Below are positions 2,142 to 12,053 of a stretch of 32,000 nucleotides of DNA, one piece after another; position 1 is the first letter of the stretch; each line of letters opens with the position of its first letter. This DNA is from Nitrososphaerota archaeon (lineage in GTDB: Archaea > Thermoproteota > Nitrososphaeria > Nitrososphaerales > Nitrosopumilaceae). The notes beneath the pieces were generated by a model. That model saw nothing but the letters and a program-made list of their open reading frames with translations. It had not been told where the DNA came from and ran no database searches. The position numbers and the translations under genes were made by a program. Location: positions 25,046 to 57,045 of the forward strand of contig JABDDN010000004.1 of NCBI GenBank assembly GCA_013287585.1, read 5' to 3'.

Positions 2142-3034
2142 GATTGTGATCTTTCATAAACTGTTTGGCACCACTGTAATATTTTTTCAATATCATCTGA
2201 AACAAAATCTGCTTCTTCCTTAGTCTTTTTTGCCAGTTTTGTACAAAAAACAAGATGTAATGCTTTACCAAATTTTGCTTTTGATACAGTAACAGCTTGG
2301 GAAAAAAACTTGATTGTATTTTCAGTAGAAGAAAAAACAACAATTACCATCAAGCCTTGTTTTTTTACCCATACTTTGTTTAGAAATCTTTGTAAATCTA
2401 TGTCAAACATGACATCAATAGCAGTTGACATATCTCCTAATTGTGATACTTTCCAACCTTCAACATGAAAAGCGGCAGATGCAGCTTGTGCCATAAGTGA
2501 ATTTTTGGAATCTGCAGAAAAAACAACGATATTCTTTTTTACATCTGTTTCCTGTTCGGCTAGAATGACGAGATAAATTGAACCTAAGATAATGTCATCA
2601 AGATAATTTTTTTCAGATTTACCAATCTTTCCAGATTCATACGAATTTTGAACAGATTCTATTGCTGGGATAACTACTTCTGTAATCATCTTAGTAGGAC
2701 TGGCTCCAGAATGAAGCGAATTTCTGAGTATATTATGAGCTTCTTTACTAGCGCCTGAGAGTACATACTGCAAATACTTATTTTTTAACCGGAAAAAATC
2801 TGCAGGAAATTCAAATGATTCAACGCCTTCTTCCATAAACCAGAGATTTACATTTCCTATGTTTTTTTGCTTTACAAGTCCCTCTGCAGCAAAGACTTTA
2901 AGATATTTGGTCATGGTTAATCTATTTATTTTCAATTTTTTAGAAATCTCAATGCCTGAAAGGCCTATTTTTGAATCATGTAAAACATCAATTAATTTTT
3001 CTTTTATCTTTTCAGATTGATAACCACGAACCAA
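2138..3034 (-). CDS. Winged-HTH transcription regulator fused to a degenerate cobalamin(B12)-binding-like module
   Basis: The N-terminus has a wHTH pattern (SGIEISKKLKINRLTMTKYLKVFAAEGLVKQ..NVNLW). The middle resembles the helical cap of B12-binding domains (..VVIPAIESVQNSYESGKIGKSEKNYL..). The C-terminus is Rossmann-like (NIVVFSADSKNSLMAQAASAAFHVEGWKVSQLG), but the DxHxxG His is replaced (DSK). Confidence 0.55.
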   Translation of the reverse strand: MVRGYQSEKIKEKLIDVLHDSKIGLSGIEISKKLKINRLTMTKYLKVFAAEGLVKQKNIGNVNLWFMEEGVESFEFPADFFRLKNKYLQYVLSGASKEAHNILRNSLHSGASPTKMITEVVIPAIESVQNSYESGKIGKSEKNYLDDIILGSIYLVILAEQETDVKKNIVVFSADSKNSLMAQAASAAFHVEGWKVSQLGDMSTAIDVMFDIDLQRFLNKVWVKKQGLMVIVVFSSTENTIKFFSQAVTVSKAKFGKALHLVFCTKLAKKTKEEADFVSDDIEKILQWCQTVYERSQS

Positions 3035-3088
3035 TGATTTTGAAAATATCTTTTCTAGTATATAGCATTACTAAATTAACCAACAGGA

Positions 3089-3103
3089 ACCTGAATTTCA
3101 GGT
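3089..3103. promoter_or_regulatory. Perfect 15-nt palindrome ACCTGAAtTTCAGGT upstream of the wHTH/B12-like regulator gene
   Basis: Read directly from the sequence. It lies about 55 nt upstream of the minus-strand start at 3034, beyond a TATA-like element near 3055-3065. It is a candidate operator. Confidence 0.3.
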
Positions 3104-3375
3104 CTCCTGCGGTCAGGTACTTGGTATGGTCTGGTATTCAGTACTTTGGTGTGGTCTGTAATTGCTTACGAGCGCACTAGAATTTATTATGTAAATTTAA
3201 TAAATAAAAAATGCGTATCTATGCTACTAAATATTTAATAGTCAGATCTTAAATTGTAATGATTTTTTTCAATTACTGTTCGTTAATGAGTTTTGAATTT
3301 TAGGGGCGCATAAAGGTAGAAGGACAAAACAAATGGATAACCTTAATTCAGAATGCAAGTAAAAATTAAGATAAG

Positions 3376-3738
3376 ATGGCAGGAAAAATAGATATAGAAA
3401 ATGATAATCTGATCTTCACACTGACTGGAGTAGACAAGGTGCTTGCTCTAAAGAGCAAACTTACGATTCCGTTGAAGCGCGTCAAGTCAGTATCGACAGC
3501 CACGGCAGATTGGAATTACTTCAAGATGTTAAAAGTGGCTGGCACAAAGATTCCCAAAGTGGTAGTTGATGGGAGGTTCTTGAGCAAGGAAGGTTTACTT
3601 TTCTATGAGATGCATGACCCTAACAAGTGTATTACAGTTGAGTTGGAAAATGAAAAATACAAGAAGGTTATCTTTGAGGTGCCTGATAAGGAGACTACTG
3701 CAAAAATGATTCAGGAAGCACTTGATAGATTACACTAA
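3376..3738 (+). CDS. Hypothetical protein (possibly bacterial-type PH-like domain)
   Basis: 120-aa ORF with an ATG start, an AT-rich promoter-like region upstream, and a beta-rich pattern. No motif was recognised. Confidence 0.55.
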   Translation: MAGKIDIENDNLIFTLTGVDKVLALKSKLTIPLKRVKSVSTATADWNYFKMLKVAGTKIPKVVVDGRFLSKEGLLFYEMHDPNKCITVELENEKYKKVIFEVPDKETTAKMIQEALDRLH

Positions 3739-4101
3739 CAAGATATGAACTGACGAAATATGACAATACTGATTAACTATTATTTTAGGTCTTGAAGGTT
3801 AACCGTTAGTATAAAGAGGTAAGCTCAGGAACAAACGAACCTATCAGGTCGATCTCCATATTGAATCTACACATTAGTTGTATTTCAATTTTAAAGCCAA
3901 TTTTGTGCATTGCTTCATAAATTATGAATAATATGAAATCAACAAAAATAGTTGTCTGATAGTATAATCGGTAAACCGTTTTGATCACTCATTGTAGAAC
4001 GTGCCGACCTGTTACAAGGTAAAAACGTGCCATCAAGTTAACAGCACCAAATCCAGAAACGTTAAATACTTGTACTTTAAAGTACGGTATAGGTAGGTAA
4101 T

Positions 4102-4488
4102 ATGCCAAAAGCAGGATTCAAATCAATTACAGTTTCAGAAACGGTATACAACAAGTTCCATGATGTATACAAGAAAAACAGAGACGACCTTGCAATGAAA
4201 GGCATCAATAGCTTTGCCGGATACATCACTTTCATGATGGAGGACTTGATGCAAAAAGATGAAACATTTGCAAGATATGCACCTAAACTTGAAAAGATTT
4301 CAGTTGATGATAATAGAGTAGTAGTAAAAGACAACATCAAAAACAGAATTGCCGAAGTTGCAATTCAAAATGGAGAACTTTACTGTATGTTCTGTGAAGA
4401 GAAAGATTGTGTACATGTTGGTTTTGTGTTTTCTCTTCCTGATGTTTATGAAGTTCTAAATGCACGCGGAATTAAACATCAAAGATAA
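4102..4488 (+). CDS. Hypothetical protein with an N-terminal ribbon-helix-helix-like segment and a C-terminal Cys/His cluster
   Basis: 128-aa ORF. The N-terminus (MPKAGFKSITVSETVYNKFHDVYKK) resembles a CopG/RHH beta-strand plus helix. The C-terminus has CMFCEEKDCVH (CxxCx4CxH), a possible Zn site. Confidence 0.55.
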   Translation: MPKAGFKSITVSETVYNKFHDVYKKNRDDLAMKGINSFAGYITFMMEDLMQKDETFARYAPKLEKISVDDNRVVVKDNIKNRIAEVAIQNGELYCMFCEEKDCVHVGFVFSLPDVYEVLNARGIKHQR

Positions 4489-4494
4489 AAAAGT

Positions 4495-4612
4495 GCAGGA
4501 GGTGGGATTTGAACCCACGAACCCCTAAGAGACGGGATCACCCATTTTTATGATCTTAAGTCCCGCGCATCCAAAGGCTAGGCCTTCTTTGGCCAGGCTC
4601 GGCGACTCCTGC
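4495..4612 (-). tRNA. tRNA-Leu(UAA), class II, intron-containing (118 nt)
   Basis: The minus-strand read gives acceptor GCAGGAG/CTCCTGC and T-arm GTGGG-TTCAAAT-CCCAC. The anticodon stem is CGGGA/TCCCG with loop CTTAAG..A (anticodon TAA at 4556-4558). A 16-nt insert sits at the canonical 37/38 site (about 4539-4554). The variable arm is long (TCTCTTAGGGGTTC). About 15 extra nt in the D-arm/position 26 region (about 4567-4585) suggest a second intron. Confidence 0.75.
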
Positions 4613-4710
4613 GTTTTATTAGCATAAAGTTGTGGAAATTAAACGTTTTATGAAAAATTTTGTCAAGACCAAGTAAGATTAATAAGGATTCAGTAAAGCG
4701 ACCATGTCAT

Positions 4711-4783
4711 GCTTCGATAGCTCAGCCTGGTAGAGCGTTACCTTGGTAAGGTAAAGGTCGCGGGATCGAATCCCGCTCGGAGC
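4711..4783 (+). tRNA. tRNA-Thr(GGU)
   Basis: 73-nt cloverleaf: acceptor GCTTCGA/TCGGAGC, D-arm GCTC-AGCCTGGTA-GAGC, anticodon arm TTACC-TTGGTAA-GGTAA (anticodon GGT), T-arm GCGGG-ATCGAAT-CCCGC. No CCA is encoded. Confidence 0.9.
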
Positions 4784-4852
4784 TTTTGTTGTTTTAAAAA
4801 TATCATTTCTAGATTATAATTCAGTAGATTTTTTCTAATGCTAAATTCAATT

Positions 4853-6190
4853 TTATGTAGAGAGAGGAATTGTAAAATAAAAGGTAGTTCCATCTCCTTC
4901 CTTGCTTTCAAACCAGATCTTCCCTTTCAAATTTTCAACTATTAAACGACAGATTACCAATCCAAACCCACTTCCACCGTATCTTCTTTTTAAAGACAGG
5001 TTAACTTGGTAGTATTTTTTAAAAACAGAATCCTTTCTTTTTTCCGATATACCTATACCATTATCCTTAACAAAAAAACGAATACCGTCATCCCCTTTTT
5101 TGGCACCAATCTCGATTTTACCCCCTTCTTGTGGTACAAAATCTACTGCGTTTTGTATCAAGTTATCAAAAACTTGCTTTAACCTATTCTTATCACTTTG
5201 AAGAATTGATTTTTCTTTTGTTGTATCAACAAATTCAATCTTTTTGTCCTTCATCATATGAACATTAATGTCAACAATGCTTTTCATAAATTCATTAATT
5301 TTGAATTCATCTTTGCTGAAAGTCATTTTCTGAGCAACAAGCAGTTGAACATCAGACATATCCTCAAGCATTCTTTCTAATCTAATCGCATTATTATAAA
5401 TCTCATTTACAGCTTCCAATTGTTGTGTGTTTAGATTTGCAGCAACTGGATCATTGAGTGACTCACAGTATCTCTTTATTGGCTCTAAAGGTAATTTACA
5501 TTCTTGTGAAAGAGAGAAATAAAATTCTTCTTTAAGCGAATTCATTTTTTGTAATTCTTCTAGTTGAATTTTTTGTCTTTCGTGGTCTTGTATAACCTTC
5601 CTGGCTTCATAAATATCTGAAATATCCCGAATTGCTGTATTGCTGCCAATTAGTTTGCCCCTTTCATTATACATGTTATTAGCGCTTAATAATGCTGGAA
5701 ATGCGGAACCATCTTTTCGTTTAAACCATATTTCTCTACTCTCAGCACGTCCTGTTTCTTTCCAAGACTCAAATGTATTACGCATTTCTGTAATGCTTTG
5801 CTCTGCAACATGATCAAAAATTGATTTACCTATTACCTCATTTTTGGAAGAACCAAAGTTTTTTGCATATTTTTGATTGCATTCTAGAATTATACCATCA
5901 GTATTTACAGTACGTTGCATTACTGGTGATTCTTCATATAGATTTCTATATTTGATGCCATCTACTGAAGAAAGTGATTTTCTAGTTTCAACTTGATATG
6001 GTTGTGCTAAAAGAGGATTTTTAGGAGTTCTACTGTTTGCCCACATAATAACTCCACCCACAACAATTCCAGCAAGTCCAAGATAAAATGCGTGATATGC
6101 ATATGGAACATTAGGATCTAAACCATAGTCAGTTACTGCCAATCCCATAATTACCAATAATAATCCGCCGGCAATTCCAAAAGTATTCAT
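4853..6190 (-). CDS. Membrane-anchored PAS-domain sensor histidine-kinase-like protein with an atypical H-box
   Basis: 445 aa with two N-terminal hydrophobic helices and a PAS-like region (..ILECNQKYAKNFG..). A DHp-like segment follows. The HATPase_c motifs are intact: N box QVFDNLIQNAVDF, G1 DNGIGI, G2 GGSGFGL. The H-box reads FSLSQECKLPL, with Gln where the phospho-acceptor His is expected. Confidence 0.85.
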   Translation of the reverse strand: MNTFGIAGGLLLVIMGLAVTDYGLDPNVPYAYHAFYLGLAGIVVGGVIMWANSRTPKNPLLAQPYQVETRKSLSSVDGIKYRNLYEESPVMQRTVNTDGIILECNQKYAKNFGSSKNEVIGKSIFDHVAEQSITEMRNTFESWKETGRAESREIWFKRKDGSAFPALLSANNMYNERGKLIGSNTAIRDISDIYEARKVIQDHERQKIQLEELQKMNSLKEEFYFSLSQECKLPLEPIKRYCESLNDPVAANLNTQQLEAVNEIYNNAIRLERMLEDMSDVQLLVAQKMTFSKDEFKINEFMKSIVDINVHMMKDKKIEFVDTTKEKSILQSDKNRLKQVFDNLIQNAVDFVPQEGGKIEIGAKKGDDGIRFFVKDNGIGISEKRKDSVFKKYYQVNLSLKRRYGGSGFGLVICRLIVENLKGKIWFESKEGDGTTFYFTIPLST

Positions 6191-6327
6191 ATTCTACTCC
6201 AAAAAAGATTGCTTTTCATAGTATCCAATACTGGAATGAGTAAAATAATTTTTTGAATAGCAACTCCAATCAATGGATATTAAATACAAAACTAGAAGAT
6301 TAACTTTTCAGGTTTTGTAAATCTAAA

Positions 6328-6864
6328 TCACTCTAAAACCAGAATCAAATTATCCAAGAATTCTTGGATCCTAGTTTTTATTCCATCTATTACTTTTTTG
6401 AGTTCATTATTTGTAATACGTGCTTCATGAATTCGCAAGTTTTTTGATGCATGATCCATCCCATGTTTTGTTATGAATTCGTTAAATTTCTCAAGATACT
6501 GACTTGTGATTATAAGATGACCATTATTTTCAATTTCAGATATAGGTTGATAAATTATTGATTTTCCAAAAAATTCCAATATGTCAGGTGGTAGTGGCAC
6601 CACACTTCCATAAACATCATAAAATAACCAATTAGTTTTTCTATACGAGGGAAGGTTGTCATAAAATTCATCCTTAGTTTTGTATAAACCAAGATAACCG
6701 TTTAATTCTAAATCTATCCATGTATTTTTATCAGATATTCCTAGGTATTTACAGATGGTTTTACATGATTGCAAGATCTCATGTAACGATTTTTTCTCAT
6801 CCAAAAGTTCTATACTTACCGTTTTTGCTAATTTTAACGCCTCATCTTTTTTATTTTGACTCAA
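6328..6864 (-). CDS. AbiTii-like domain protein (abortive-infection-associated family), otherwise uncharacterised
   Basis: In this 178-aa ORF, the segment LHEILQSCKTICKYLGISDKNTWIDLELNGY....LPSYRKT matches my recollection of the AbiTii N-terminal domain signature (..LA.kLg...L..Wi..ELnGY...lPeYR). No effector motif was recognised in the C-terminal half. Confidence 0.5.
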   Translation of the reverse strand: MSQNKKDEALKLAKTVSIELLDEKKSLHEILQSCKTICKYLGISDKNTWIDLELNGYLGLYKTKDEFYDNLPSYRKTNWLFYDVYGSVVPLPPDILEFFGKSIIYQPISEIENNGHLIITSQYLEKFNEFITKHGMDHASKNLRIHEARITNNELKKVIDGIKTRIQEFLDNLILVLE

Positions 6865-6980
6865 GATATCAAACTAGTGTATTACTACCATGATTTTACT
6901 TTATCTTGTAGATACATATAGAAAAATTTTACAAAAATCATGATTTGGAGGCAAATCAGAGTAAAATAAAATTTAGGGTT

Positions 6981-7844
6981 TTAATAATTTTTTATTAAGA
7001 TTTCAGTATGTCCAGTTCTCTTCTTTGAATTTGAATTTATGAATCTATTTGTATTTATTTCTATTATATTATCAGAATATTCTGAGAATAATTCTATTAC
7101 TTCGTGTGATTTGGAATTTGAAAGCATGATATTACAACCTTTAGAATCAAGTTTTTTAAATTCGGTAAAGAGTCTTTCCTGATCTTTGTATCCAAAGTTA
7201 TCATTTGTATAGCTAGTAAAGTTTGCAGTAGAGCTCACTGGCTGATATGGTGGATCTAAATACACAAAATCATCTTTTTGTGCTCTCCTAAGAGCAGCAG
7301 TGAAATCTTCACACTTTATTGAAATTCCTTTTGATTGTAAAACGTGACTTAGTACCTGAAGGTTTTCTTTATTTACTATGTTTGGATTTACATACTTTCC
7401 TATCGGCACATTGAATTTCCCTTTACTGTTTACTCTGTACAAACCATTAAAACAAGTCTTGTTTAGAAATATGAGTCTTGAAACTTTATCAATCTGGTTT
7501 TTTGGATTACTGTCTCTTACTTGATAATAATATTCTTCAGAATTTTTAAAGTAATTTTCTGAATGTTCTTCGAGTGATATTACCAATTCATCAACTTTGT
7601 CACGAATTGTGACATATGATAGAATTAAAGTAGAATTCAAATCAGATACAAAACATTTTAGTTGAGAATTTTGAGATAACAGATATAACAAGACTGCTCC
7701 GCCCCCTAAAAATGGCTCAAAATACGTATCAAAATTTTTTGGAGTATGTTGTGATAGTGTTGGTAAAAGTTGTCTTTTTCCTCCTGCCCATTTTACAAAC
7801 GGCTTGGGTACAACAGATGTGATTTGTTTGTATTGCTGTTTCAA
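6981..7844 (-). CDS. dam: Dam-family (D12 class) N6-adenine DNA methyltransferase
   Basis: 287 aa with the KWAGGKRQLL motif, AdoMet motif EPFLGGGAV (FxGxG) and catalytic DPPY (VYLDPPYQP), in the alpha-class order typical of Dam/DpnIIA-like enzymes. Confidence 0.9.
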   Translation of the reverse strand: MKQQYKQITSVVPKPFVKWAGGKRQLLPTLSQHTPKNFDTYFEPFLGGGAVLLYLLSQNSQLKCFVSDLNSTLILSYVTIRDKVDELVISLEEHSENYFKNSEEYYYQVRDSNPKNQIDKVSRLIFLNKTCFNGLYRVNSKGKFNVPIGKYVNPNIVNKENLQVLSHVLQSKGISIKCEDFTAALRRAQKDDFVYLDPPYQPVSSTANFTSYTNDNFGYKDQERLFTEFKKLDSKGCNIMLSNSKSHEVIELFSEYSDNIIEINTNRFINSNSKKRTGHTEILIKNY

Positions 7845-7996
7845 TATACAATAGTATCAAGATTTTATTTTGCACGATATGACAATAAAAGATCACACGT
7901 TGTGTAGCTTTTTTTAATCAAGATGATCAGATTTTTCTAAAAATCATCTATGAGATAATCTAGGTAGTAATAAAATAAAGTAAAAGGAAAGGGAAG

Positions 7997-8647
7997 TTAG
8001 TCCCACTTACTCCAAGCTGCCATCCATCTGTATGTCCACGTTGTCAATTTGCAGCCTAAAGCTGTCATTGTAACTGACAGGACAGCACCGGCACCCGCAC
8101 CTAGCGCGACCGGACTATCATAGAACTTTCCAACTTGGGGTTCTATTGGAGTCATGTATGGAGGCAATGTAGTCCTTGGGTATTTGAATGCAGTCTCTAG
8201 CGGATCGTCTATCGTAATGAGATTTATCATGTTGAACATTGGCAGAGACATTCCACAAAGTACACCGCCCATCAGAATGAGAGAGTGTTTGTTCTTCTTT
8301 GTTGCCCAATATACCAAATCCATCAGCATAGCCGACGGAATCCAAACTGGTACAACTATGAAGCTATATGGATATCCTAATGAGAACCACGCTCCTTTTG
8401 CAATCCACGTATACACCGTCATTATCAGTGCATAGTAAGTTGCAGTTCCTGGAACTCCAGTGAATGTAAGGTAGTACGCGGCACCGACAGCAAGCATGAG
8501 TGTCTGTGATACTGAAAATACCACAAATGAAGTCCACGCCCAGTCAGTATAGAATATGTAGTCTCCGGCATTGATGGTCAACAACGTAGAGTTGACTGCT
8601 ACCACTACTATAAACAAGTAGTGAGTACATCGTCTTAGCCAGACCAT
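7997..8647 (-). CDS. amoA: Ammonia monooxygenase subunit A (archaeal)
   Basis: This 216-aa polytopic membrane protein begins MVWLRRCTHYLFIVVVAVNSTLLTINAGDYIFYTDWAWTS and ends TWTYRWMAAWSKWD. As I recall them, this is nearly identical to Nitrosopumilus AmoA sequences. Confidence 0.98.
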   Translation of the reverse strand: MVWLRRCTHYLFIVVVAVNSTLLTINAGDYIFYTDWAWTSFVVFSVSQTLMLAVGAAYYLTFTGVPGTATYYALIMTVYTWIAKGAWFSLGYPYSFIVVPVWIPSAMLMDLVYWATKKNKHSLILMGGVLCGMSLPMFNMINLITIDDPLETAFKYPRTTLPPYMTPIEPQVGKFYDSPVALGAGAGAVLSVTMTALGCKLTTWTYRWMAAWSKWD

Positions 8648-8783
8648 TAGCCACTATGATAGATGCGGTGTATATAAAATTTTACGTAGGTATTGAGATC
8701 AGGTTTTATACAACATCATAATTGTTCATTTTTTACTTTCAAGTAAGAATCTAAAAATTAAAAGAAAAGGGGATTGAAAATTT

Positions 8784-9149
8784 CTATGCGCCGAAGAAGA
8801 AACAGTCAGTCAAGATTGTTGCTATTGCTATAGCTGCAATTATTCCTGCCATTGCACCATCATAGGTTCTTGCCTTCGGAGTACCTTCGGTTACAACCTT
8901 TACACATAGTAAATAACCAATGGCCTCTATAATTGTCAACACCGTTAGAGCAAAGTGTGCACTCGGTGGAGGATAAGCCCATGGATAATAGGTAACTGCT
9001 ACGGCAACACCTCCCCATGTTCCAATCCAACTGGCGACGAAAATGCCAGTGATTATTCCAAAATAATCTTCTGCACGTCTACCAATCATTTTGCTTACGT
9101 CGGAACTGGAAGCTCCGCCACCAGTACCAAATCCTTTTGGTAAAGTCAT
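8784..9149 (-). CDS. amoX: AmoX, small membrane protein encoded between amoA and amoC
   Basis: 121-aa hydrophobic ORF in the conserved amoA-amoX-amoC position of Nitrosopumilales. GC-richer composition like the flanking amo genes. Confidence 0.8.
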   Translation of the reverse strand: MTLPKGFGTGGGASSSDVSKMIGRRAEDYFGIITGIFVASWIGTWGGVAVAVTYYPWAYPPPSAHFALTVLTIIEAIGYLLCVKVVTEGTPKARTYDGAMAGIIAAIAIATILTDCFFFGA

Positions 9150-9230
9150 TTGGGTAATTATTAATCCGTATGCTTTTAAGTCTTTCTTAGATGAGAAGAA
9201 AATGCTTTACGCTTTAGGGATCTAAAAATA

Positions 9231-9256
9231 ATAAAAAATGCGCTTTTGCGCGCCTT
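9231..9256 (-). terminator. Terminator-like GC hairpin plus T-run downstream of amoC
   Basis: The minus strand reads ..GGCGCGCAAAAGCGCATTTTTTATTATTTTT immediately after the amoC stop (9260): a short GCGC/GCGC stem followed by oligo-T, the usual archaeal termination signal. Confidence 0.35.
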
Positions 9257-9259
9257 TTT

Positions 9260-9823
9260 CTATGGGATGGATCTACTGTACAATTTACCTTCTAGGGCCA
9301 TCTTGTACATTTCTGCAACATATGGGTTCTCACCTGGGGTTTCTGCTCCAAGCTCGACTAGTCGTGCATATACTCTAACTACATAGGCAAGTGCGCCCAT
9401 GAAAGCAACGACGACACCCATGTTAAACATCCAGTGGTTTGGTACTGCAAAGATTTCCTCTACATACCAGAAGTGCCACATTTCGTTTACACCAATTGTG
9501 AACATTGTTGCCAAATAACCAAGTATGGTCATCTTAAGGCCAGTGTTCATGGAGTTGTTTGGACCCCTCAGGATAGGTACTTTTCTGTCATACATTGCCA
9601 CTGATGCCCAACCTAATGGAAGAGCAATAAAGTGACTGTATAACCACCAGTGTGCTGGTGTAAATGCGCTATCTCTGATAGATGTTTGATGGAGTGATCC
9701 ATCAACGAAGTTGTCTACTTCCACTGAAGCAGCGATAGATCCCATTGCGATGACGATTAACCAGATCTTTTTCAGTCTGTGTATCTCGACTTCTTTTGGA
9801 ATCAGTGCGGGCATTTGTGCCAT
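9260..9823 (-). CDS. amoC: Ammonia monooxygenase subunit C (archaeal)
   Basis: 187-aa membrane protein with characteristic AmoC stretches (SIRDSAFTPAHWWLYSHF, NEMWHFWYVEE), sitting in the amo cluster. Confidence 0.97.
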   Translation of the reverse strand: MAQMPALIPKEVEIHRLKKIWLIVIAMGSIAASVEVDNFVDGSLHQTSIRDSAFTPAHWWLYSHFIALPLGWASVAMYDRKVPILRGPNNSMNTGLKMTILGYLATMFTIGVNEMWHFWYVEEIFAVPNHWMFNMGVVVAFMGALAYVVRVYARLVELGAETPGENPYVAEMYKMALEGKLYSRSIP

Positions 9824-9975
9824 ACACCATGTGATGAGATTTCAATATATAAAGCATGAGTAATAAATTAACAATTTTTTGTATATTTTATAGCAATATA
9901 TTAAACTATTATTAAAAATCATAACATAAATTTCTCTAAAAAGCAAGTAATTCCTATATAAAAAAAATGTGCCCT

Positions 9976-10013
9976 CAATGTTTATCATCAATGTTTATCA
10001 TTAGTTTTATCAT
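9976..10013. repeat. Tandem 13-bp repeat (CAATGTTTATCAT x2 plus a degenerate TAGTTTTATCAT) in the amoC/amoB divergent intergenic region
   Basis: Read directly: 9976-9988 and 9989-10001 are identical, and 10002-10013 is a related 12-mer. It lies about 90-125 nt upstream of the amoB ATG and about 150-190 nt upstream of the amoC start. Confidence 0.9.
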
Positions 10014-10099
10014 TATTTTTCTTATATTTGGATCAGATCACTTGTTATGAGGGTAAAACATATATCGTTGTTCTTTCTCTGATGCATTAGTTACGTGAT

Positions 10100-10666
10100 A
10101 TGGTAGATAAGAAATTAATCGTAGCAGCACTTGGTGTAATTGTAGCACTTGGAGCAGTTGGACCATCATTGGCTCAAATGTTCCAGCACGCAGAAGCACA
10201 TGGTGTACAGGCACAACTACAAAGTCGATTTGTTAGGATAGATGATGAAACATGGTCAAAACAATCTGTCCACACAGGTGACACCCTCACAGTATCAGGC
10301 AAATTCGTAAGTCTCGTACAAAGAGACCTAAGAGGCTGGTATACTGTATATGGTGACTCTCCTAATGCAGGTAACAGATGGGAGATTGTAGCAAGAGACC
10401 CACCTGGTAACGTTATAGACATTCCAGGAAACTCGGTCATTCCTTACACATTGACAATCAGGGCTCTAGAACCAGCAGTCTATCACATGCACACACAGCT
10501 TAACATCGCAAGTATAGGCCCAGGACTTGGTCCAGGACAAACAATAGTAGTCACTGGTGATCCAATCATAAAACCAATTCCATACACAAATGTAGCCTAT
10601 CAGTCGATAATAATTGGCGTGGGTTATGTTGTAACGTTTGCAACAAGACCGTGGCAAGTGATTTAA
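10100..10666 (+). CDS. amoB: Ammonia monooxygenase subunit B (archaeal short form)
   Basis: 188 aa with a signal/anchor peptide, then a ..AEAHGVQAQ.. N-terminal His region, a single cupredoxin-like domain and a C-terminal TM helix. It is inverted relative to amoAXC, as in Nitrosopumilus. Confidence 0.95.
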   Translation: MVDKKLIVAALGVIVALGAVGPSLAQMFQHAEAHGVQAQLQSRFVRIDDETWSKQSVHTGDTLTVSGKFVSLVQRDLRGWYTVYGDSPNAGNRWEIVARDPPGNVIDIPGNSVIPYTLTIRALEPAVYHMHTQLNIASIGPGLGPGQTIVVTGDPIIKPIPYTNVAYQSIIIGVGYVVTFATRPWQVI

Positions 10667-10772
10667 AACAAATTCCCCCTCTCTTTTCATTTTATCAAAG
10701 TCATATGGCACAATATATTCAAACTACATTCATGTCATAAGCCTGTCAAGATATTGTTTAACAGTCATGACT

Positions 10773-11036
10773 TTAACCAAACATACCCGTTGGCACATGA
10801 TTATATTCCAAAGTCCATTTTCTTACACAGTATACAGGCACGCCCACAGTTAGTGGCAAAGCAAAAATCACTCCAAATGGCCACGGAATGATCATTTGAA
10901 CGAAAGCATCAGCAAGAAAAATAATCAATTCCACAATCAACCCTTTTGTAAATTTTCTAATTCTGTAAAAAGCAATAAGCTGAGTTACAAAACTGGGTAT
11001 TATGGCCAGTATCATTTGACCACGCATACCAATCAT
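10773..11036 (-). CDS. Small hydrophobic membrane protein (about 3 predicted helices), unknown function
   Basis: 87-aa ORF convergent with amoB, strongly hydrophobic. No motif recognised. Confidence 0.5.
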   Translation of the reverse strand: MIGMRGQMILAIIPSFVTQLIAFYRIRKFTKGLIVELIIFLADAFVQMIIPWPFGVIFALPLTVGVPVYCVRKWTLEYNHVPTGMFG

Positions 11037-11115
11037 TTTTTACAATTGATAGTCAATGTATTTTTAGTTTTGTCTTATAGAAATTTTTAATGATGATCGT
11101 TTCTTTTAAAACGTA

Positions 11116-11331
11116 TTGAGGAACATTATTCTTAAAATTGCCATAATTCTAATAATAATAGCAGCCACAATACAAGTCATCCAAGTTCCTTCAGATCATA
11201 ATTCTCCAGTATTAGCTGTTTTTCAGAACCCAGATATAATTAATGCATTACCAATCATCCAATACATATTTGCCATAACTGGAATTTTTTTAATAGTTAA
11301 ATTCATCATAGATAAAATATTCAAAAAATAA
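11116..11331 (+). CDS. Small two-helix membrane protein, unknown function (TTG start)
   Basis: 71-aa ORF with two hydrophobic stretches (ILKIAIILIIIAATIQVI, IIQYIFAITGIFLIVKFII). The low-complexity AT-rich coding makes it uncertain. Confidence 0.4.
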   Translation: MRNIILKIAIILIIIAATIQVIQVPSDHNSPVLAVFQNPDIINALPIIQYIFAITGIFLIVKFIIDKIFKK

Positions 11332-11360
11332 TTCTTGAGTTTTAATTATTTATTATAAGA

Positions 11361-12053
11361 TCAATACTTTATTTTCAGATTATCAAAATAAGCTTCTGTA
11401 TCTTTTTTTGTCCACAATCCAAGCTGCCCGTTTTGATAGTGTTGATCATATCTCTGAATAAGCAATTTACCATCAAGATATCCAGCTATGCCTTGTGCAG
11501 ATACATCAGTAGTTATCGTATGCCACTGACCTAGAGGAATATTTACGGATTTATCTTCAATGCATAAAAGTTTCTCAGGATCAGCTTTACATAATGAAAA
11601 GAGACTATTCTTAGAGTCAGCCACTAATACAAAATAATGTTGATTATCCATGAATCTAATTATCAGACCTGCAGCTTGTTCTTTTTCTCCAGAATTAATC
11701 TTAAACTGTACACTTGTTTCTGAATTTGTACTTTCAACACCATCAGGCATTAGTTGAATGTGATAATCAAATGTAGTGTCATTATCTGTCAATTTAGCAA
11801 GTACATTTGGTTTAGATGGTGCAGATGGATCAGACTTAACAACCCAATAACCAGGTTGTGCATCAGTTTGAAGATATGAGAAACCATCAGGCACAGTACC
11901 ATCCTTGTAAGAATCAAAATTCCATTCTTTAGTAGTTTTATACGGACCAGTTTGTATTACATTGTAGTATGCAAATGTGATAGCACCTATCGCTATGATT
12001 GATGCAATAGTATATCTTTTTTTTCTTCCCCAGCGTACAGATCGACTTGACAA
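11361..12053 (-). CDS. Membrane-anchored concanavalin-A-like (LamG/DUF1080-like) domain protein
   Basis: 230 aa with a TTG start, an N-terminal TM anchor, then a beta-rich domain ending ..GQLGLWTKKDTEAYFDNLKIKY. That ending resembles the G.vGL....a.FDN..v terminus of DUF1080/LamG jelly-rolls. Confidence 0.6.
   Translation of the reverse strand: MSSRSVRWGRKKRYTIASIIAIGAITFAYYNVIQTGPYKTTKEWNFDSYKDGTVPDGFSYLQTDAQPGYWVVKSDPSAPSKPNVLAKLTDNDTTFDYHIQLMPDGVESTNSETSVQFKINSGEKEQAAGLIIRFMDNQHYFVLVADSKNSLFSLCKADPEKLLCIEDKSVNIPLGQWHTITTDVSAQGIAGYLDGKLLIQRYDQHYQNGQLGLWTKKDTEAYFDNLKIKY

Follow-up and report, generated by a model that had tools for sequence, protein, structure and literature searches.

The genomic window analysed here, a stretch of 32,000 nucleotides (nt) from contig JABDDN010000004.1 (positions 25046-57045) of a Nitrosopumilaceae genome (GCA_013287585.1, labelled G000), carries next to amoA a gene for a Dam-family DNA methyltransferase (referred to as the methylase), a gene for a 178-amino-acid (aa) protein with an AbiTii domain and a gene for a PAS sensor kinase. 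We found that the methylase is an old, family-wide orphan gene of the Dam type that has been located downstream of amoA since before the family diversified. The AbiTii gene entered the locus once, between the methylase and a tRNA-Thr gene, in the common ancestor of two genera and with a kinase that lacks the phospho-acceptor histidine. The methylase gene together with its promoter region is an inversion hotspot that has been flipped many times between short repeats. We consider it probable that the locus is layered and consists of an independent orphan GATC methylase and of a solo AbiTii protein that works, if with anything, with the His-less kinase. An earlier note made from the letters of this DNA had described the methylase and the 178-aa protein as a compact pair and had suggested either an anti-virus module or an atypical type II restriction-modification (R-M) system. 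With the present analysis a tempting false lead is removed: a methylase beside an Abi-like gene is at this locus not a new R-M or Abi system.

An orphan methylase tied to amoA

The gene encodes a complete Dam-type methyltransferase, as the earlier note had stated. The protein comprises 287 aa with a TTG start and contains the AdoMet motif FxGxG, read as EPFLGGGA in the translation, as well as the catalytic DPPY, read as YLDPPY. It matches PF02086 with an E-value of 5.6e-62 (210 bits, cut-off 22) and, over its full length, the TIGR00571 'dam' family with 1.8e-85 (286.9 bits, cut-off 114.85). The closest solved structures are those of DpnM (5e-64), E. coli Dam and T4 Dam, all of which recognise GATC. 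Published methylomes of relatives point in the same direction. In Ca. Nitrosoarchaeum BD3 methylation of GATC to N6-methyladenine (m6A) reaches 98.2%, the methylase has no R gene, and the motif was called conserved in the group (PMC6329791); for Ca. Nitrosomarinus catalina a value of more than 99% is relayed in a review (PMC11033074). The homology to DpnM and Dam and these methylomes make it most likely that the methylase modifies GATC throughout the genome and that it does so with no cognate nuclease.

The methylase is the only D12 gene of the G000 genome. Neither G000 nor five relatives with a completeness of 95–99% yielded a nuclease of the DpnII family, other nuclease families being searched non-exhaustively, and MutH was not found in G000. 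The spacers of the methylase/AbiTii locus do not contain a hidden or spare open reading frame (ORF), so that the missing restriction partner noticed earlier was confirmed. The observed/expected ratio of GATC is 0.865, which is mid-range among 4-mer palindromes, and the site is thus not avoided. With no cognate endonuclease found and with vertical conservation in a syntenic position, the gene qualifies as an orphan methyltransferase.

The distribution of the methylase was determined in 60 relatives, of which 36 are Nitrosopumilaceae genomes representing 27 genera; the related records are metagenome-assembled genomes (MAGs) from soil, groundwater and lake. The gene is present in 35 of the 36 family genomes and in all 27 sampled genera, with identities of 47–94%. 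It lies directly beside amoA in 32 of 35 relatives, is non-adjacent in one and is cut off by contig ends in the remaining two. In genera that have no AbiTii gene the order is amoA, methylase, tRNA-Thr(GGT) and a 128-aa ORF, and the tRNA gene is located 3–7 nt from the methylase stop codon. The position beside amoA had been regarded as unusual for accessory DNA; the methylase is instead a conserved neighbour of amoA across the family. A conserved orphan methylase had also been named beforehand as the outcome that speaks against a pairing with the Abi-like gene, and this outcome is what the family genomes display. Throughout the family, the orphan GATC methylase of these globally important nitrifiers is thus physically linked to amoA. 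We found no description of the amoA-methylase linkage, of Nmar_1499 or of repeated methylase inversion in the searchable literature.

In one relative (G024:C4:76620-76823 and 75967-76650) the methylase adjacent to amoA looks split by an in-frame TGA or a frameshift. It may be a pseudogene and is the sole such case seen.

AbiTii and a His-less PAS kinase as a later insert

The 178-aa ORF lies where the earlier note had placed it, 116 nt downstream of the methylase on the same strand, and the outer flanks also agree with that description, with the PAS kinase on one side and amoA, followed by amoX, amoC and amoB, on the other. Hidden Markov model (HMM) searches bore out the resemblance to AbiTii: the protein matches Pfam PF18864 with an E-value of 1.2e-14 (55.4 bits, cut-off 27.6) and the PADLOC AbiTii model (PDLC02334) with 4.3e-18. 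The match had been assigned to the N-terminal half, with a C-terminal half devoid of recognisable motifs. The first part of this description stands and the second does not, as the Pfam match extends over residues 12–170 (profile positions 2–160 of 189) and the protein consists of one domain. The family-invariant residues W49, E53, G56, Y57, P72, Y74 and R75 are kept across relatives at 28–63% identity. An AlphaFold (AF2) model with a mean confidence (pLDDT) of 84.5 is mostly helical with three short strands. The features by which the AbiTii family is recognised, a highly conserved glutamate (E53) and an alpha+beta fold, were both found.

A fold search with the model gave no match in PDB or BFVD (best E-values 1.3 and 0.17). 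Neither a PD-(D/E)xK nor a HEPN nuclease fold, for which the earlier note had proposed to inspect the structure, was seen in the model, and this assignment was dropped. Orthologues have N, T or S in place of Asp93 of a putative 'PD' motif. When 1.8 billion representatives were searched with a profile, no more than 65 matches resulted. The nearest relatives outside the lineage are mostly proteins of 320–550 aa, in which AbiTii is N-terminal and is joined to other C-terminal domains, namely a Ymh HEPN domain, a sub-threshold DUF3226 match or a domain of unknown type. This pattern of fusions agrees with Anantharaman et al. 2013 (PMC3710099). An AbiTi partner was found neither among the neighbours nor in six whole genomes, with a profile that matched in no control genome and whose sensitivity is therefore unverified. 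PADLOC scans of four neighbouring ORFs yielded only sub-significant Cas/CARF noise. The protein is a solo domain of the sensor or adaptor type and not a nuclease, and the locus is not a canonical AbiT two-gene system.

The AbiTii gene is far more restricted than the methylase. Within this genus it occurs in eight of ten genomes, and outside it in one further genus; it was found in none of the 25 other sampled genera, all of which carry the methylase. When the phylum was sampled with 401 genomes, two of 161 genera had the gene. Co-occurrence of the two genes across genomes had been proposed as a check; AbiTii is present in two sampled genera and the methylase in all 27. On the methylase tree the AbiTii-bearing loci form one clade (support 90/78). 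At every locus the AbiTii gene is followed by the PAS kinase gene on the same strand after a spacer of 48–185 nt, and orthologues of this kinase exist solely in the two AbiTii-bearing genera, the next-best matches being paralogues with at most 50% identity. By phyletic pattern and by strand the constant partner of AbiTii is therefore the His-less kinase and not the methylase.

The kinase does not qualify as a canonical sensor histidine kinase. Its H-box has Q229 in place of the phospho-acceptor histidine and reads Q, R or K at this position in all orthologues, as opposed to SHELKTPL in four paralogues; the paralogues within the same genome retain the histidine. To judge from these substitutions the protein looks like a conserved pseudo-histidine kinase that is limited to the AbiTii-bearing clade. 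Pairwise dN/dS values range between 0.02 and 0.19 for AbiTii, methylase and kinase, with about 0.1 for the methylase. Such values indicate purifying selection: the three genes are functional, evolve slowly and belong to the core of the clade, which is unlike typical defence islands. One soil and freshwater clade has accordingly fixed a bacterial-type AbiTii sensor domain beside a degenerate sensor kinase.

Some peculiarities were seen among the AbiTii loci. Two of them (L079 and L080) represent a locus type with a 54-nt spacer. In two MAGs (G001:C10/C170 and G006:C233/C247; loci L008, L012, L005 and L014) the assembly breaks in or beside the AbiTii gene, and overlapping but non-identical AbiTii copies are present on two contigs, which suggests strain mixtures. 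A long-read-style contig from ENA (L081) has amoA, methylase and kinase split into short ORFs, probably due to sequencing frameshifts.

The layered reading accounts for the locus as follows. The order amoA, methylase, tRNA-Thr(GGT) and 128-aa ORF is ancestral to the family, and the AbiTii gene and a duplicated His-less PAS kinase came between methylase and tRNA-Thr at a later stage. In HEPN and other effector proteins elsewhere, AbiTii is the N-terminal part and serves as sensor or adaptor; here it may cooperate in trans with the PAS/GHKL protein of the membrane, and the two would form a sensing module, peculiar to this lineage, for defence or stress. Independently of them the methylase would act as a housekeeping epigenetic enzyme. 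Insertion beside a tRNA gene can then account for the adjacency of methylase and AbiTii.

Several points weigh against this reading. The genome carrying the window is 77% complete, and the GATC specificity and activity of its methylase are predicted from relatives. In the review cited above (PMC11033074) Nmar_1319 is given as the GATC methylase of N. maritimus, a different locus tag that we could not reconcile. No att-like duplicate of tRNA-Thr longer than 10 nt borders the AbiTii-kinase insert, and the kinase is a local paralogue that was not co-transferred. The proposed cooperation of AbiTii and kinase derives from co-occurrence and strand, and 48–185 nt separate the two genes. The adjacency of methylase and AbiTii is kept in all of the approximately 35 loci of the clade and in both orientations, so that a functional link between them may exist, such as one that senses the methylation state. 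AbiTii-HEPN relatives often sit in R-M neighbourhoods (PMC3710099).

These last points are the ones to be expected if methylase and AbiTii formed a compact defence module, with AbiTii as a sensor of infection or of unmethylated GATC DNA and the methylase as the enzyme that labels self DNA. A compact module had been suggested in the earlier note; we regard it as unlikely. The two genes are indeed adjacent in all loci of the clade, but insertion beside the tRNA gene can explain this, and the methylase predates AbiTii and does without it in 25 of the 27 sampled genera. PADLOC recognises both proteins, and the AbiTii family derives from an abortive-infection system with HEPN-fused members near R-M genes; at this locus, however, no effector domain, AbiTi partner, nuclease or HEPN fold was found. 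The slow evolution under purifying selection and the fixation as core genes also set this locus apart from typical defence islands. Finally, the repeated inversion of the methylase cassette described below means that there is no conserved operon.

Inversion of the methylase cassette

The co-directional arrangement of methylase and AbiTii seen in the window is one of two common states. It is shared by G003, G005, G007 and G019. The methylase is inverted relative to AbiTii and amoA in G001, G004, G006, G008 and G009 as well as in many metagenome contigs, so that it is divergent from AbiTii in about half of the relatives. A convergent orientation of the methylase was also found in four other genera (G017, G018, G020 and G030). 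Compared with G008 the breakpoints are located at 6921/6922 and 7919/7920, and the remainder is collinear over 16 kb. The same inverted block (6979-7919 in the window's own numbering) is present in G004, G006, G008 and G009, and the promoter region travels with the methylase gene.

On a tree of the methylase protein with 43 loci of known orientation eight changes of orientation are needed, of which at least five are forced by well-supported branches. Within this genus three junction classes can be distinguished by the distance between the start codons of AbiTii and methylase, which amounts to about 131 nt, 162–173 nt or 182–186 nt. As the three classes keep different segments of the flanks, they argue for at least three independent inversion events in this genus.

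The cassette also differs from its flanks in genealogy. In a tree of the flanking AbiTii and kinase genes G000 and G008 are sisters with a support of 100/100, a grouping that is rejected by the cassette data in an approximately unbiased test (p-AU 1e-63), the group having been chosen after the trees were seen. Synonymous divergence (dS) between these two genomes is 0.40 for the cassette vs. 0.12–0.14 for AbiTii and kinase. The differing genealogies of flank and cassette suggest that the orientation alleles are older than the species or have been exchanged between them. No evidence of rapid switching was seen: near-identical cassettes in opposite orientation were not found, the closest opposite pair having a dS of about 0.4. 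We did not lean on the cassette as an island of divergence against G008, as other parts of the window differ to the same extent (nucleotide identity about 90%). Taken together, the methylase has flipped repeatedly while its surroundings stayed collinear, and its genealogy is decoupled from that of the flanks.

Inverted repeats are located at or near the breakpoints (Table 1). The imperfect 22-nt repeat is the best one between the two spacers (p=0.027 vs. dinucleotide shuffles). The 14-nt repeat is the best repeat in loci L002–L006 too, with p-values of 0.013–0.056 each. Type-B junctions contain a pair of perfect 11-nt inverted repeats. All these repeats are short, AT-rich and partly palindromic, and they rise only marginally above shuffled controls (p 0.013–0.056).

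In the upstream region of the methylase (7845-7919) a conserved small palindrome and a GATC (ACACAACGTGTGATC) directly precede a TATA-like TTTTATTG. This element is kept even in the other genus, but the type-B lineage has lost the GATC; it could be a binding site or a methylation-sensitive site. Due to this loss we did not build on an autoregulation of the methylase through GATC.

The two orientations might have consequences beyond the locus. Since the methylase lies just behind the gene with the strongest transcription in the cell, orientation would set methylase dosage, with transcriptional read-through being sense in one state and convergent antisense in the other. In the widest reading the two cassette orientations persist as long-lived alleles across species and set the dosage of the methylase, and solo AbiTii and the His-less PAS kinase together could make up a two-gene sensing or defence module of a new type. 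We consider this combination rather improbable; if true, ammonia-oxidising archaea would possess a heritable kind of epigenetic variation linked to the amo locus. Should orientation affect methylase expression, it would provide simple and natural access to epigenetic regulation in archaea for which genetic manipulation is difficult.

That the cassette serves phase variation as a programmed invertible element, with reversible inversion changing methylase expression within populations, is quite unlikely. Inversions have recurred and their breakpoints fall into the same two spacers, but the presence of at least three junction classes in one genus means that there is no single fixed recombination site, and no recombinase gene is found among the ORFs listed for 3000-12000. 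Short inverted repeats at or near the breakpoints would fit such an element, their statistics being marginal as given above. The decoupling of cassette and flank genealogies would fit as well, yet no near-identical pair of cassettes in opposite orientation was found. Moreover, as the promoter region moves with the gene, inversion is no obvious ON/OFF switch. Fixed inverted-repeat sites with a cognate recombinase, by which programmed invertible elements are recognised, were not found.

An atypical type II R-M system with the 178-aa protein as an unrecognised GATC endonuclease, which had been suggested earlier and for which the small co-directional ORF downstream of the methylase would speak, is hardly credible, since a linked and co-inherited endonuclease was not found: the whole protein is an AbiTii domain without nuclease profile, its confident model has no match to a PD-(D/E)xK-like fold, Asp93 is variable, GATC is not avoided, most methylase-bearing genomes have no AbiTii gene, and the two genes are divergent in half of the relatives.

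The positions of the features are given in Table 1. An Rfam scan of 4000-9000 had tRNA-Thr as its sole match. The 128-aa ORF has an N-terminal start resembling strand-helix-helix and a C-terminal cluster of Cys and His, and it does not match Pfam. Within the first 16 kb the only stretch that does not align with G008 (locus L015) is a small variable segment at 3358-4014, which contains a 120-aa ORF at 3376-3738.

Table 1. Features of the methylase/AbiTii locus and of the repeats around the methylase cassette, in window positions
Feature	Position	Strand	Basis or remark
ORF of 128 aa, flanks methylase and tRNA-Thr family-wide, old locus boundary	4102..4488	+	locus comparison
tRNA-Thr(GGT), marks insertion site of AbiTii and kinase	4711..4784	+	abuts methylase in AbiTii-less genera
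PAS sensor-kinase paralogue, membrane, without phospho-acceptor His (Gln229)	4853..6190	-	Pfam PAS, HATPase_c, weak HisKA
AbiTii-domain protein, stand-alone, 178 aa, without effector domain	6328..6864	-	PF18864, PADLOC AbiTii, invariant residues
Outer-flank arm of 14-nt inverted repeat (I2), TTTTACTTTATCTT	6894..6907		conserved in genus
Left arm of imperfect 22-nt inverted repeat (I3), at left breakpoint	6918..6939		82% complementary
Methylase cassette (about 59 nt of 3' region, ORF, 75 nt of promoter region), inverted in many relatives	6922..7919		junctions vs. G008
Dam-family (D12) N6-adenine DNA methyltransferase, orphan, GATC specificity predicted	6981..7844	-	PF02086, TIGR00571, DpnM/Dam/T4 Dam structures
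Right arm of 22-nt inverted repeat, about 10 nt outside right breakpoint	7930..7951		contains palindrome GATTTTTCTAAAAATC
Partner arm of 14-nt inverted repeat	7972..7985		T-rich stretch just after amoA stop
amoA, conserved upstream neighbour of methylase	7997..8647	-	locus comparison across family

Comparison with known systems

The methylase belongs to the same D12 class as M.NspBD3II of Ca. Nitrosoarchaeum BD3, M.Nca01II of Ca. Nitrosomarinus catalina and DpnM/E. coli Dam, with FxGxG and DPPY motifs in common. With the orphan GATC methyltransferases of its relatives, which achieve about 98–99% GATC methylation and have no cognate nuclease, it shares the orphan state. Any Dam-like role in mismatch repair would have to differ here, as MutH was not found in G000.

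The AbiTii protein shares with AbiT of Lactococcus (AbiTi and AbiTii) the match to the AbiTii profile and the invariant residues including the conserved Glu. Lactococcal AbiTii has no HEPN domain and no PDB fold match (2026 review), and the same is true for the 178-aa protein. AbiT of Lactococcus has an AbiTi partner and is plasmid-borne, whereas here no AbiTi was found and the gene belongs to the chromosomal core of an archaeal clade. The neighbours also differ, being here a methylase and a His-less kinase. Fusions of AbiTii and HEPN (the c2405 and Ymh families; Anantharaman et al. 2013) contain the same alpha+beta domain of about 180 aa. They are multi-domain proteins, whereas the domain stands alone at this locus, so that an effector would have to act in trans or be absent. 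The kinase has the same architecture as pseudo-histidine kinases, with PAS, DHp-like and HATPase_c domains and a replaced His; the searchable literature contains no description of such kinases being linked with AbiTii.

For the cassette the closest parallel is found in the work of Furuta, Abe & Kobayashi 2010 (PMC2853133), who reported R-M genes and orphan M genes flanked by inverted repeats and read them as transposon-like insertions with target duplications. Those units and the cassette have in common short imperfect inverted repeats around a methylase and a local rearrangement. At the locus described here, in contrast, the gene stays in place and its orientation alone changes, repeatedly, through the history of the family.

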